The position numbers and the translations under genes are program-made. The notes beneath the pieces are model-generated. The model was not told the origin of the DNA, searched no databases, and saw only the letters and a list, made by a program, of their open reading frames with translations. A stretch of 64,000 nt of DNA from Candidatus Latescibacterota bacterium (lineage in GTDB: Bacteria > Latescibacterota > UBA2968 > UBA8231), in the NCBI GenBank assembly GCA_965203175.1, contig OZ241867.1, positions 1,536,001-1,600,000 on the forward strand, read 5' to 3'. Below, in pieces: positions 56,406-59,566 of the stretch (position 1 is its first letter; every line of letters starts with the position of its first letter).

Positions 56406-59400
56406 CATTGAATCTCGACGTACCTTGGCATAGGGAGTCCTTTGACCTTTTCGTCCACCAGCGACTGCCCCAGCTTTTGGGCGAGCGCTTGCCGCTGGCC
56501 GATTATCAAGTCGAACAACAGGACTCCTATACTTTTTCCATTAAACTGAGCTTGGGACTCGGCGATGCCCCGGTCGAGGTTGAGTACCGAGATTTGCCTC
56601 GGCCCGACCGCGATGGTCTTTTCCACATTGAAGGCAACTACCGGGTCGTGGTCCCCTATCCCGACCGGCGCGAACTCGCTCAAGCGCGGATTCTGTGCGT
56701 GGGCGAGCAGCTCTACGACTTTATTGACCAAAGATTGGAAGCGGCTCCTGAGCAATTGGCTTGGGATGGCGACTTAGTGCGGAGTTGGCTGCCGCTAGAC
56801 GCTTGGATGCGCGACTTCCACTTGGAGGCAACTTCCCAGTACCTCCAGGCGACCAACTGGCTTGACCGCTATACTCATCTGCGGCGGCTGACTTTGATCC
56901 CCATCGTTGACGAGCCTTTTGTCGACCAAGACGTTTTCCCCGACAGCCAATACGGCCTAGTGTGCCCCCACTGCACTCCCGAGGGACCCAATATCGGCCG
57001 AGTGCTAGAAGTAGCCCGCGGTGCCCGCATCCGCGACGGCAAGCTCGAACGGATCGACGAAGCGCCCGACAGCATCTTGGGTTTTTCGGCCTCCATGGTG
57101 CCCTTTCTCGAACACGACGATACCAATCGCGCTCTGATGGGCATCAATATGATGCGCCAGTGGACGAGCGCCGCCGATACCGCGGCACCGGTCCACGCCA
57201 CGGGTTGGTTCCGCCAGCAGCACGATCAGCGCTTGGCCTCCAAGGGCCACAAACCCGAACCAGCCCTAGTGCAGACGGGATACGAGCCGGAGGCCGCCGA
57301 CTTTTGGGGCGGGTACAATCTGCTGACCGCCTTCGTCATGTGGGATGGGGACACGTTTGAGGATGGCTTAGTCATTAGCGAGTCGGCCGCGGCGCGGATG
57401 GACTTTCCCGCCGCAGTGGGGGTGGGCGACAAACTAAGCAACCGCCACGGTGCCAAAGGAGTGGTGGCGCGCATCCTGCCCGACGCCGACATGCCGCAGT
57501 TGCCCGACGGTACGTCGGTAGAGCTCATTTTGAGTCCGACCAGTATGGTCTCGCGGCTCAACTTCGGCCAGCAGCGCGAGGCGGTCATGGGTCGCATTGC
57601 CCGAGCCGAGGGGACTCCGGCGGTGGTGCCGCCTTTCCAAGCACCCAGCGAAAAAGTGTTGAAAGCGCGTCTGGTTGAGGCGGGACTGCCCGAAGACGGC
57701 ATGGAGCAACTGACCCTCAAAGGCGCAAAGCTGCCCTATCGCAGTACCGTGGGTTGGGTGTACTGGGGTCTTCTGGCGGCCCACACTGCGGCCGAGCACT
57801 TGGAAACCGCGGTGATAGGAGTCGGCGGACCAGCGCTCGACATGATGGCCTACGGAGCTTTGAGCGAGGCCGGGGCCGTAGCCAATATCCACGCTTTGTT
57901 CAACACGGCCGCGGCTGAGCGGCCCGACGCCGATGCGCTAGGCCAGCGTTTGGCTTCTGACCCAATATCCCCGTCTCCGCCTCCGTCTCCACGCTTTGCT
58001 CTATTGCAGCAGTTGTTGGGTATGGCCGGGATACGGGCCGAGTTGGCGGGCGGGGCATTGCGCTTTGCCTTTGCCGAGCCGAAGGGATTGACCTTGGCTC
58101 GCCCCGTGTCGCACCCGTGGGCACCGGGACGCCAAGTAGGGACGGTGGGAGATCCCGGCGCTTTGCCTGCGGGGATCGAGTTCGACCCGATTCGAGGCTG
58201 CTACGAGGATTTGGTCGAAGCTAATACGCGTTTGCAGCGCATCATCGATAGCGAAGCGCCCGAGGCTCTGGTCGGGCCAGCAGTGGCACAGGTGACCCAA
58301 CGGGTGGAGGATTTTTTTATCGCGTTGTTGCGCCCGGAGCACCTCCACTTTCAAGCAAGACCGCTGTTTAGCGGCCGGGCCGCGCTTGTCTCTGGTTTTG
58401 AGTTGGAGCTCGACCAAGTGGGCCTACCCGAGGAGATGGCCTGGAATTTGTTCGGGCCTCAGGTAGAGCGGGAGATAGGTCGCGCCGAGGAAGTGGCGCA
58501 GCGTTCGCCCCGAGCGGCTAAGGTTCTGGACGCGATCATGGAGCGCTCGTGGGTGCTGCTGTACAGCGCCCAGCGGGTGCTAGTTGACGATGGCCCGGCG
58601 TCCACCGCAGTGGTGGCCTTTCGTCCGCAGCGTTTGGCCGGGGCCGCAGTGCGCGTCCATCCGCGCATTTGCCGACTGATGGAGCTAGATTTCGACGGCG
58701 ATCAGATCGAGGTGTTTTTGCCCCTCACTGAGGAAGCCCAGGCCGAAGCCGAAACTGCGCTGTCGGTGGCCGGGCACATACAGCGCGACGCGGATATATG
58801 GCGCTACGTGACCGACAACTACCACGGCATGATATGGGGCTTGGCGCAGCTTTGCCGCACGGAGGAAGGCCGCGCCGAAGTGGAACGGCTGACCGGAGTG
58901 GCCGTGGATGGCAGTCGGCTGTTCGTCAAGCACGACCTCAACCGCTTATTAGCTCAGGTGCTGCAGCGCGAGGGCCTAGAGCGAGCACTGGAGGTACTCG
59001 ACCAGCTAACGCGGCGCGGCTTTGAGGTCTGCAAGCAGTCGGGGGCCTCCTTCAATCCCTTCCTCGGTTCGAGCAAGGAGTGGCCTGAGCAACCCGAGGA
59101 AGCCGATTGGGACGAGTGGCAAATGTACAGCGACGAGTTAGTGGCAGCTTTCTACCAGCAGGCCGATTTCGACGACAACGACTTGGGGCCTTTGGCTCTG
59201 TTGTCGCTGTCGGGGGCGCGGGGCAACCAACAGCAGTTGATCCAATACGTGGGCGGCGGTCTGCTCTATCGGGAAGATGGCAGTCTATTCGCTCAGCGCG
59301 GTTGTTGGCGCGACGGCCTGTCGGTAGAGGAAACCAAGGTGCGGGCCCCGCGTGCCTTATGGTGGGGTCTGGCCGCCGCCAACCAGCGCTGGATTGAGGC

Positions 59401-59566
59401 GCAGGAAGCGGCCCAACAGCCCGTCCGTGCCGATTACCACGTTTTGGGCCGGGCCGCCAAGGCCGCGCAGCCGGGCGTAGTCTTTGCTAGAGCGGCTGAG
59501 CGCGGAGAGACCGATCCGCTGACCAGCCTATTCAGCCGGCTCTTTGCAGGGCTACCAGCGAACTAG
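56402..59566 (+). CDS. miniaturised single-chain RNA polymerase beta-beta' fusion-like protein
   Basis: RpoB blocks: GLFHIEGNYRVVV, THLRRL, YGLVCP..TPEGPNIG, PFLEHDDTNRALMG.NM.RQ, FEDG, GDKLSNRHGAKG, DMP..PDG, SRLNFGQ. RpoC blocks: LARPVSHPW, clamp helices, FSGRA, VGLP, VHP, LDFDGDQ, SGARG, RDGL, AA.RGETDPL. ATGA overlap with the sigma gene. Confidence 0.9.
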   Translation: MTLNLDVPWHRESFDLFVHQRLPQLLGERLPLADYQVEQQDSYTFSIKLSLGLGDAPVEVEYRDLPRPDRDGLFHIEGNYRVVVPYPDRRELAQARILCVGEQLYDFIDQRLEAAPEQLAWDGDLVRSWLPLDAWMRDFHLEATSQYLQATNWLDRYTHLRRLTLIPIVDEPFVDQDVFPDSQYGLVCPHCTPEGPNIGRVLEVARGARIRDGKLERIDEAPDSILGFSASMVPFLEHDDTNRALMGINMMRQWTSAADTAAPVHATGWFRQQHDQRLASKGHKPEPALVQTGYEPEAADFWGGYNLLTAFVMWDGDTFEDGLVISESAAARMDFPAAVGVGDKLSNRHGAKGVVARILPDADMPQLPDGTSVELILSPTSMVSRLNFGQQREAVMGRIARAEGTPAVVPPFQAPSEKVLKARLVEAGLPEDGMEQLTLKGAKLPYRSTVGWVYWGLLAAHTAAEHLETAVIGVGGPALDMMAYGALSEAGAVANIHALFNTAAAERPDADALGQRLASDPISPSPPPSPRFALLQQLLGMAGIRAELAGGALRFAFAEPKGLTLARPVSHPWAPGRQVGTVGDPGALPAGIEFDPIRGCYEDLVEANTRLQRIIDSEAPEALVGPAVAQVTQRVEDFFIALLRPEHLHFQARPLFSGRAALVSGFELELDQVGLPEEMAWNLFGPQVEREIGRAEEVAQRSPRAAKVLDAIMERSWVLLYSAQRVLVDDGPASTAVVAFRPQRLAGAAVRVHPRICRLMELDFDGDQIEVFLPLTEEAQAEAETALSVAGHIQRDADIWRYVTDNYHGMIWGLAQLCRTEEGRAEVERLTGVAVDGSRLFVKHDLNRLLAQVLQREGLERALEVLDQLTRRGFEVCKQSGASFNPFLGSSKEWPEQPEEADWDEWQMYSDELVAAFYQQADFDDNDLGPLALLSLSGARGNQQQLIQYVGGGLLYREDGSLFAQRGCWRDGLSVEETKVRAPRALWWGLAAANQRWIEAQEAAQQPVRADYHVLGRAAKAAQPGVVFARAAERGETDPLTSLFSRLFAGLPAN

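Follow-up and report, generated by a model that had tools for sequence, protein, structure and literature searches.

We analysed a stretch of 64,000 nucleotides from a Candidatus Latescibacterota bacterium (contig OZ241867.1, positions 1,536,001 to 1,600,000); this whole stretch is called the window in the following, and positions are counted from its first letter. A preliminary description of the window had pointed to an altered RNA polymerase active site at 58553-59440. These positions are residues 718-1013 of one open reading frame (ORF), 56402-59566, and the region they mark is the catalytic centre, of beta' type, in a single-chain fusion of beta and beta' with 1054 amino acids, P0001. Together with the gene of a sigma factor of the extracytoplasmic function (ECF) type, P0002, it makes up a two-gene operon, that is, a unit of promoter, sigma factor and fused polymerase (Table 1). 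The fusion architecture, the dedicated sigma factor and the promoter go beyond the preliminary description, and the sigma-coupled single-chain mini polymerase family itself is the larger result of our analysis.

Table 1. Features of the operon, with their positions in the window.
Feature	Position	Strand	Remarks
ECF-type promoter-like motif TGAACC-N14-GGCGTC	55760..55785	+	20 nucleotides upstream of the likely sigma start
ECF sigma factor (P0002), 199 amino acids from M61 of the longest ORF, 55626-56405	55806..56405	+	region 2, linker, region 4
Fused polymerase-like gene (P0001)	56402..59566	+	1054 amino acids; reduced beta, residues ~1-470; beta', residues ~470-1054
Beta-type motif FLEHDDTNRALMGINMMRQ with R243	57104..57160	+	aligned to IPFLE(N/H)DDANRALMG(A/S)NM(Q/M)RQ of RpoB chains in the PDB
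Acidic pair FEDGL, E320 and D321	57356..57370	+	beta half, aligned to RpoB chains
Basic motif GDKLSNRHGAKG with K344, R348 and K352	57425..57460	+	aligned to GDKMAGRHGNKG of RpoB chains
Pair of long antiparallel helices, residues 595-616 and 621-642	58184..58327	+	predicted by the model where beta' has its clamp helices
Rewritten sugar-selectivity loop VLLYSAQRVLVDDGPAS, residues 718-734	58553..58603	+	S722 at the place of the relatives' Arg, plus an insertion
Metal-binding motif ELDFDGD with D763, D765 and D767	58682..58702	+	residues 761-767, read from the DNA
SGARGNQQQ, segment ahead of the bridge helix	59210..59236	+	aligned to SGARGN of beta' chains
Bridge-helix-like helix, residues 975-1004	59324..59413	+	predicted by the model, pLDDT ~68-92; divergent sequence
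Conserved C-terminal motif VLGRAAKAAQPGVVFARAAERGETDPLTSLFSRLFAGL	59441..59551	+	directly after the bridge helix, no trigger loop between

Judged by sequence comparison, the homology of P0001 to RNA polymerase goes far beyond chance. Pfam places Rpb2_3 (8.3e-07) and Rpb2_6 (1.2e-31) in the N-terminal half and Rpb1_2 (8.1e-12) in the C-terminal half. Against PDB chains, the E-values go down to 2.6e-42 for RpoB and are 3.5e-21 for RpoC; the beta' half searched alone with phmmer gives 1.3e-22. The curated cut-offs of NCBIfam are missed (160 versus 801 for TIGR02013, 93 versus 963 for TIGR02386), and since P0001 stays far under all rpoB and rpoC cut-offs, we regard it as a homolog and not as an ortholog.

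The predicted structure agrees with this assignment. An AlphaFold2 model, built from an alignment of 33 sequences, has a predicted local distance difference test (pLDDT) score of 91.4 and a predicted template modelling (pTM) score of 0.89, and Foldseek matches it best to RpoB and RpoC chains of bacteria and plastids in the PDB (E ~1e-21). In a viral structure library the top matches are beta/beta' homologs of giant viruses and phages, which are not closer than the cellular ones. The same architecture is predicted for a second family member, whose active site is canonical (AlphaFold2 pLDDT 91.4).

P0001 keeps the two double-psi barrels and the motifs that handle nucleic acids; the flap, the trigger loop, the jaw and most of the lobes are lost. 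At the place of the flap, residues 279-330 align with 744-796 and residues 338-465 with 932-1060 of chain 8i23_C, leaving ~135 residues of 8i23_C without counterpart and ~8 unaligned query residues between 330 and 338. We take this deleted beta segment to be the flap, for which passages of PMC7824862 give support. Also removed are most of beta upstream of the fork region and, from beta', all that lies between the bridge helix and the conserved C-terminal motif. The loss of flap and trigger loop is family-wide. The first 135 residues gave no match in Pfam, and a search of a protein atlas with the N-terminus gave leads only, namely viral beta N-terminal domains, whose scores (0.91-0.92, with 124-142 shared features) fall below the level quoted for true relatives.

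The clamp helices of beta' are the usual docking site of sigma region 2. For the two long helices that the model puts at their place, phmmer pairs YEDLVEANTRLQRIIDSEAPE with the clamp-helix stretch of beta' chains (a weak match, not significant alone), and the family profile aligns the region with three full-length beta-beta' fusions. The sigma factor would presumably dock here.

The segment ahead of the bridge helix, SGARGNQQQ, belongs to stretches that are weak alone in phmmer, and it is conserved across the family. The predicted helix that follows spans 30 residues at the bridge-helix place in the sequence, after which only 50 residues remain; in the family profile, its N-terminal half pairs with the bridge-helix region of full-length fusions. 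In most other clades the sequence here is (I/V)GAR-xGLA, and the clade to which the window protein belongs (the window clade, see below) reads PRAL(W)WGLA. A seeming insertion of four residues in the bridge helix was dropped, as a second alignment gives 0-1 residue. The C-terminal motif is conserved family-wide. Its weak best matches in three full-length fusions lie at their extreme C-termini, with E-values (0.007, 0.44 and 1.9) that come from a search of three sequences. It may correspond to the conserved C-terminal region of beta' ("region H"), which these matches back weakly. The spacing between bridge helix and C-terminal motif is ~225 residues in P0264 and ~45 in P0001.

Sigma factor, putative promoter and distribution of the family

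P0002 has sigma regions 2 and 4 and no other sigma domains, the composition by which ECF sigma factors are recognised (Pfam Sigma70_r2 5.8e-15 and Sigma70_r4_2 2.1e-12; NCBIfam sigma70-ECF TIGR02937 3e-28, score 98.5 against a cut-off of 42.9). Its likely start, M61, was derived from an alignment of 30 orthologs. In the window, the stop codon of the sigma gene and the ATG of the polymerase gene overlap as ATGA, with a ribosome-binding site, GGAGGAG, just ahead. In 76 of 80 loci, an orthologous sigma gene lies upstream, on the strand of the polymerase gene; this and all further locus counts refer to the best 80 of 462 loci, with one genome per species. The four exceptions are L037, in which the contig ends, L023, in which there is a fragment only, and L014 and L075, in which no sigma gene is detectable.

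In front of the sigma gene we see a second conserved element. The motif TGAACY-N14-GGYGTC has one exact match, on the plus strand, in each of 68 of the 80 loci, across phyla. At the expected place it is found in 65 of the 76 loci that have the sigma gene; six more show it with one mismatch, one with two, and in four it is missing. A short leader with a AGTAGAGG-like ribosome site comes after it. This distribution suggests a conserved ECF-type promoter. Two further matches in the window with one mismatch (30241-30266 and 60431-60456, minus strand) are within chance, given that 8 of 100 shuffles produced at least three.

The linker of the sigma factor shows a motif of its own in the 30 aligned sequences, VPGWMIDxAxLGPDxxxExAEQ (window 56130-56200, ~residues 109-132 from M61). 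Such a motif is unusual for ECF linkers, and it may serve as a contact for an enzyme without a flap.

The family is large and widespread. A word-indexed protein search found 568 proteins at E<=1e-3 among 8000 candidates scored; the best 120 have ~1000-1075 residues at 43-97% identity and are called "hypothetical protein" where they are named at all. An exhaustive search of representatives returned 347 clusters at E<=1e-30. In species-representative genomes, relatives occur in at least 462 places (462 of 501 candidate stretches were confirmed). The 80 loci come from Latescibacterota (most of them), Poribacteria, Chloroflexota, Planctomycetota, Hydrogenedentota and one metagenome-assembled genome (MAG) of Armatimonadota type, and many are on complete chromosomes of 4-8 Mb. 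The loci nearest to the window are Latescibacterota MAGs, at 94% identity. One Latescibacterota chromosome (contig OZ240241.1) has two diverged copies, L050 and L067, which are 46% and 42% identical to the window protein.

In a full-text search of the literature, outside which Iyer and Aravind 2012 lies, we found no account of a short fusion of beta and beta' with a linked ECF sigma factor. The names Rpb, RpoB and RpoC are absent from the main text and one supplement of the ECF classification PMC7826278, and the passages of PMC11515920 that deal with fusions name full-length ones only.

Active site and sugar-selectivity loop

What the preliminary description had read from the active site is confirmed, and all the strings that it quoted are present. 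It had found the three metal-binding aspartates intact, and DFDGD stands at 763-767. It had listed equivalents of beta-side catalytic residues, and R243 (in FLEHDDTNR), E320, D321, K344, K352 and R385 (in SRLNFGQ of the beta half) are all present. Their counterparts E813, D814, K1065, K1073, R678 and R1106, as well as N458 and R425 of beta', carry what we take to be E. coli numbers; the aligned chains are from other bacteria. The reported ELDFDGD in place of NADFDGD is found at residues 761-767 (nucleotides 58682-58702), with E761 where NADFDGD has Asn, and the reported VLLYSAQRVL at 718-727. How this RxP loop is placed differs between alignments (phmmer pairs RVLVDDGPA with PVLLNRAPT, the family alignment by MAFFT pairs LLYSAQ with LLNRAP), and the R425-equivalent is not an arginine in either of them, being D in the former and S in the latter. 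The degenerate bridge-helix-like segment RDGLSVEETKVRAPRALWWGLAAAN lies at 970-994, with the end of the protein 60 residues later, and it is true that no trigger loop follows the model helix. In the model, pLDDT falls below 50 at residues 726-730 and nowhere else; in the relative with NRAPT the same loop is confident (pLDDT blocks 93 and 90).

We then asked which of these features are shared by the family. Conservation was counted in 66 full-length cluster representatives (940-1110 residues) and in 71 locus sequences, using family alignments made with the fast setting of MAFFT. The catalytic set is conserved across the family at 35-53% identity. Among the 66 representatives, R348 is found in 66, R243 and R385 in 65 each, D763 and D765 in 64 each, D767 in 63, K352 in 62, D321 in 61, K344 in 60 (with R in another 4) and E320 in 57. 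The switch-2-like FSGRA and the motif GLPEEMA are near-invariant. The RxP arginine is kept in 55 of the 66 representatives and in 49 of the 71 locus sequences, and the place of N458 is taken by N (37 representatives), D (18), E (5), Q (3), G (2) or S (1).

These counts separate the two changes at the ribose-reading positions. A change of N to E by itself falls within the ordinary variation of the family; the true peculiarity is the lost arginine combined with the rebuilt loop, a derived state of the window clade. The combination of S at the arginine place and E before L-DFDGD occurs in exactly 20 of the 71 locus sequences. In the tree, these 20 sequences, all of them LYSAQR/ELDFDGD, group as a single clade, whose branch is the longest of the internal ones (0.68); outside the clade only L055 and L060 are without the arginine. 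Within the clade, all 20 sequences keep the Asp triad, E320, D321, K352, R243 and R385, and K344 is K or R; the only core change among the 19 clade relatives is K344R, in 7 of them. The length of the rebuilt loop varies in the clade (L012, L013, L017 and L023 compared with the window, residues 728-735), the variants being GPA----ST, GPMFHVPPT, GHV---PPT and EGHGPVFHVPPT. The loop is still evolving by insertions and deletions.

The preliminary description had also proposed to check homologs, where canonical NADFDGD, the arginine and a trigger loop, or random losses of DFDGD as a sign of decay, would have spoken against it. The outcome is mixed. We see no homolog with a trigger loop, whereas NADFDGD and the arginine are present outside the window clade. 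At least one aspartate of the triad is changed in 3 of the 66 representatives.

What the altered positions do in other enzymes is described in two papers. According to passages of PMC7862312, beta'R425 is the major sugar selector and N458S shifts selectivity less than 5-fold; in E. coli, R425K cuts selectivity ~17-fold at binding and ~25-fold at incorporation, and R425K or R425L relaxes the selectivity and does not reverse it, R425L being defective in processive synthesis. According to passages of PMC7708050, the arginine of RxPxLH is strictly conserved in multisubunit RNA polymerases and replaced in the DNA polymerase PolD. Because of these reports on sugar selection, we consider the missing arginine to be the most consequential change. 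The preliminary description had rightly seen an altered active site at two ribose-reading positions, and its suggestion of a changed substrate selection is a fair one for the window clade, although the part of it that was built on E for N lies within family variation. A relaxed or altered sugar discrimination is thus to be expected in the window clade.

Potentially, the change could go further, and the window-clade enzyme would have given up the making of ordinary RNA. It would produce DNA, mixed products, short products resembling primers, or a nucleotide signal, started at sites that the sigma factor specifies. The loss of the main 2'-OH selector together with Glu in place of its Asn partner (for the roles see the passages of PMC7862312) fits such a change, as do the long branch of the window clade, the indels by which the loop still changes, and PolD, a two-barrel DNA polymerase that rewrote the same loop (passages of PMC7708050). 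On the other hand, the PHT steric-gate motif of PolD is absent from P0001, the role of the arginine might pass to R725, which lies three residues downstream, and E or D at the Asn place is common in relatives that keep the arginine; moreover, the E. coli substitutions described in the passages of PMC7862312 relax selectivity only, with R425L poorly processive. We think that this changed chemistry is rather unlikely. The most far-reaching form of it is improbable: a self-contained system of sigma factor and 115-kDa beta-beta' chain, independent of the host polymerase, whose enzyme in the window clade would no longer read the 2'-OH and would then deposit DNA, or products of mixed ribo/deoxyribo type, at the sites that the sigma factor specifies. 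If true, an enzyme with DNA or mixed products would be a natural intermediate on the path from RNA polymerase to DNA polymerase, of which PolD is so far the only example.

Selection and possible roles

We compared the gene with 18 relatives of the window clade. The pairwise ratio of nonsynonymous to synonymous substitution rates (dN/dS) is 0.143-0.189 for the whole gene and 0.14-0.36 for residues 650-800, and the reading frame is intact in all 18, at 1046-1070 amino acids. One could still think of a decaying, functionless relic of a duplicated rpoB-rpoC, in view of the large deletions, the altered active-site residues and the catalytic losses in some relatives. The intact frames and the dN/dS of 0.14-0.19 speak against it, and so do the same length and the conservation at 35-53% identity across phyla and the confident folding of two family members. 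Purifying selection and the kept catalytic set therefore rule out a relic for all practical purposes and favour an active enzyme.

The same evidence bears on what the preliminary description had made of the protein. A dead scaffold, one of its suggestions, fits poorly with the kept core residues, the single kind of core change in the clade (K344R, 7 of 19) and the dN/dS values, and is unlikely here. The missing trigger loop, described there for this protein, is a trait of the whole family. Nor does slow synthesis follow from it, as YonO without one is as efficient as a multisubunit enzyme (passages of PMC5467207).

The explanation that we favour, with slightly more confidence than doubt, is an active, sigma-directed, single-chain mini RNA polymerase whose sugar selection is altered in the window clade. 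The sigma factor would dock on the retained clamp helices of the fused enzyme and direct it to TGAACY-N14-GGYGTC promoters, its own promoter included. As the conserved residues suggest, the enzyme would synthesise RNA by two-metal catalysis of the usual kind and, like YonO, do so without a trigger loop. In the Latescibacterota clade, the arginine loop was rewritten and the Asn replaced by Glu, with the rest of the site held under purifying selection. The window-clade enzyme is probably still active, with a weaker or different discrimination of nucleotide sugars.

Several observations weigh against this explanation. A dN/dS of 0.15 shows a need for the protein and not for its catalysis. Catalytic residues have been lost in a number of relatives: the full-length proteins P0123 and P0191 are without the whole Asp triad, and P0070, at 51% identity, has D767N while sharing the inserted loop of the window clade. 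With the sigma gene still upstream, L043 and L051 (Poribacteria) read NANFDGD (D763N) and have R385L, and L078 and L080 (Chloroflexota) have E320A, D321Y and R385T. All 3 losses within the triad are among the 11 representatives without the arginine, and none are among the 55 with it (Fisher p ~0.004, calculated by hand and uncorrected for phylogeny); the window lineage may itself be on a path of relaxed catalysis. From the catalytic losses in relatives that keep the sigma gene, it follows that the family probably has a non-catalytic role as well, most simply the binding of the sigma factor. Furthermore, the flap, which holds sigma region 4 (passages of PMC7824862), is absent, which makes the geometry of the canonical holoenzyme impossible. 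The loci compared encode no alpha- or omega-like partner close by, and the enzyme may use subunits of the host. No output gene was seen near the module, and the only exact copy of the promoter motif in the 64-kb window stands in front of the operon.

ECF operons usually carry the gene of an anti-sigma factor directly downstream of the sigma gene. The fused gene sits at just this place, with overlapping stop and start codons, so P0001 could be a non-catalytic mimic of the polymerase core that binds the sigma factor (perhaps also DNA) via its clamp helices, a sink similar to an anti-sigma factor or a scaffold, with catalysis being vestigial in the window lineage at least. The sigma linkage that persists in L043, L051, L078 and L080 after the loss of catalytic residues is in line with this, as are the restriction of triad losses to representatives without the arginine, the D767N in P0070, the closest outgroup with the inserted loop, and the fact that the only promoter match in the window is autoregulatory. 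However, a sink needs neither ~1000 residues nor catalytic and nucleic-acid-contacting motifs that are near-invariant across phyla, the window clade keeps the Asp triad, E320, D321, K352, R243 and R385 without exception, and P0001 has no anti-sigma domain (Pfam at E<=1 gives polymerase domains only). On balance, we judge such a core mimic to be unlikely, and continue to prefer the active mini polymerase.

We also looked at the genes around the operon. An all-against-all comparison of the flanking ORFs of the 80 loci showed no family-wide conserved neighbour other than the sigma gene, and in particular no conserved membrane or sensor gene in the module. In the window, the flanks are ordinary metabolic genes, without integrase or phage genes, and the GC content of the gene is like that of its surroundings. 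PADLOC assigned P0001 to 0 families (the sigma factor gave two marginal matches, E 0.003-0.005); in PHROGs only generic polymerase families match the two halves, at 2.4e-38 and 6.9e-25. These results bear on whether we see a polymerase of a phage, plasmid, mobile element or defence system without cellular function. The PHROGs matches, the patchy spread across phyla and the viral or plasmid-borne nature of other reduced two-barrel polymerases (YonO, passages of PMC5467207; pGKL2 Orf6, passages of PMC2919709) can be named for such an origin, but it is very unlikely in view of the metabolic flanks, the inconspicuous GC content, the missing PADLOC match, the sigma gene as the sole conserved neighbour, and best matches in structure and sequence that are cellular bacterial beta/beta' and not viral.

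Some loci show additional genes. In 17 of the 80 loci (L022, 3404-5277, L025, L027, L039, L044, L047, L049, L052, L053, L056, L057, L059, L061, L064, L066, L068 and L073), two extra genes that have no match in the window stand ahead of the sigma gene: one of ~320-345 amino acids with an N-terminal zinc finger of DksA/TraR type (Pfam 4.9e-08) and one of unknown type with ~320 amino acids. One Latescibacterota subclade (L039, L047, L049, L052, L053, L056, L057 and L079) has an ATP-binding cassette (ABC) exporter between the sigma gene and the polymerase-like gene; L059 has an unknown ORF of 396 amino acids (4707-5897) there instead. A repressor of BlaI/Penicillinase_R type is found downstream in 14 loci (for example L027, 10217-10654). 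In the window itself there are six ORFs of the PhyH (phytanoyl-CoA dioxygenase) family within 64 kb (1606-2586, 18050-18883, 30583-31437, 40242-41030, 54671-55627 and 59580-60428), two of which flank the operon on the opposite strand, and two paralogous ORFs on the minus strand, 37832-40159 (775 amino acids) and 44021-46306 (761 amino acids), that combine tetratricopeptide (TPR) repeats with a C-terminal AhpC/TSA-redoxin domain.

To our knowledge, all cellular transcription known so far uses a five-subunit core of ~400 kDa, and the few known reduced two-barrel polymerases are viral or plasmid enzymes without a sigma factor. If the favoured explanation is true, a chromosomal and widespread 115-kDa single-chain beta-beta' enzyme with its own sigma factor and promoter would be smaller than any other sigma-type transcription system known. 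It would offer a natural experiment on the dispensability of parts of the machinery (flap, trigger loop, alpha, omega) as well as an attractive orthogonal expression tool. The window clade, in which a supposedly universal ribose-selection arginine was lost from an enzyme under purifying selection, would be a second natural experiment, and the choice between ribo- and deoxyribonucleoside triphosphates (NTP and dNTP) by two-barrel enzymes is directly testable with clade members and relatives that have the canonical site. At the same time, catalytic residues were repeatedly lost in some relatives that retain the sigma gene, which suggests a non-catalytic role in the family, too.

Comparison with known systems

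The closest relatives by sequence and fold are bacterial RpoB and RpoC, from which the protein descends and whose way of working it would share. The family shares with them the double-psi barrels, DFDGD, the acidic pair, the basic GDK..NRHG.KG, ETPEGPN, FLEHDD, the switch-2-like FSGRA, the predicted clamp helices, a long helix predicted at the bridge-helix place and a partner gene of the sigma-70 family. Unlike them, the mini enzyme is one chain of 1054 amino acids instead of ~2500 in two chains, it is without flap, trigger loop and jaw, its lobes are strongly reduced, and no alpha or omega gene is nearby; the window clade in addition lacks the RxP arginine and the Asn before DFDGD.

In architecture, the family is similar to YonO of the Bacillus prophage SPbeta, as this enzyme is described in passages of PMC5467207: a single chain of ~100 kDa with both barrels and no trigger loop, a DNA-dependent RNA polymerase which is as efficient as a multisubunit enzyme, fast, processive and strictly NTP-specific, and less accurate. 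By the same description, YonO shares few residues with multisubunit enzymes; it is prophage-borne and has no known sigma factor, whereas the mini polymerases are recognisable beta/beta' homologs (E 1e-42), chromosomal and sigma-linked. A second comparable enzyme is Orf6 of the yeast killer plasmid pGKL2, an Rpb2::Rpb1 fusion of 982 amino acids (passages of PMC2919709). By its description, the order of the fusion (second-largest, then largest subunit) is the same, the size is similar and about half of the canonical sequence is deleted. Orf6 differs in being of eukaryotic type, in having no sigma factor and in its location, a cytoplasmic linear plasmid. According to passages of PMC7824862, sigma or TFIIB is bound by the flap insert, which is found in all cellular and killer-plasmid enzymes and is missing only from the group of YonO and RNA-dependent RNA polymerases (RdRP). 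The mini polymerases thus lack an insert that the killer-plasmid enzymes keep, and since the flap binds sigma and is absent only in the YonO/RdRP group, a sigma-linked enzyme without a flap is an unusual combination.

Full-length beta-beta' fusions are, as far as is known, the only polymerase of their cell. Their order is the same, beta and then beta' (NCBIfam PRK09603 and PRK14844), but they have 2240-2890 amino acids with all domains, and P0001 scores 159 against a cut-off of 5372. Such fusions are reported from Wolinella and Candidatus Adlerbacteria in passages of PMC11515920.

The pairing of an ECF sigma factor with an anti-sigma factor is similar to the operon in that the sigma gene comes first, the partner is co-transcribed and the ECF promoter looks autoregulatory; here, by contrast, the partner is a polymerase homolog without an anti-sigma domain. 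Finally, the window protein is similar to the DP2 core of PolD, likewise a two-barrel enzyme without the original RxPxLH arginine loop, whose replacement passages of PMC7708050 tie to the choice of sugar. Unlike PolD, which has GLAPHT with His as the steric gate, the window protein has YSAQRVLVDDGPAS at this place, and the rest of it is plainly bacterial beta/beta'.

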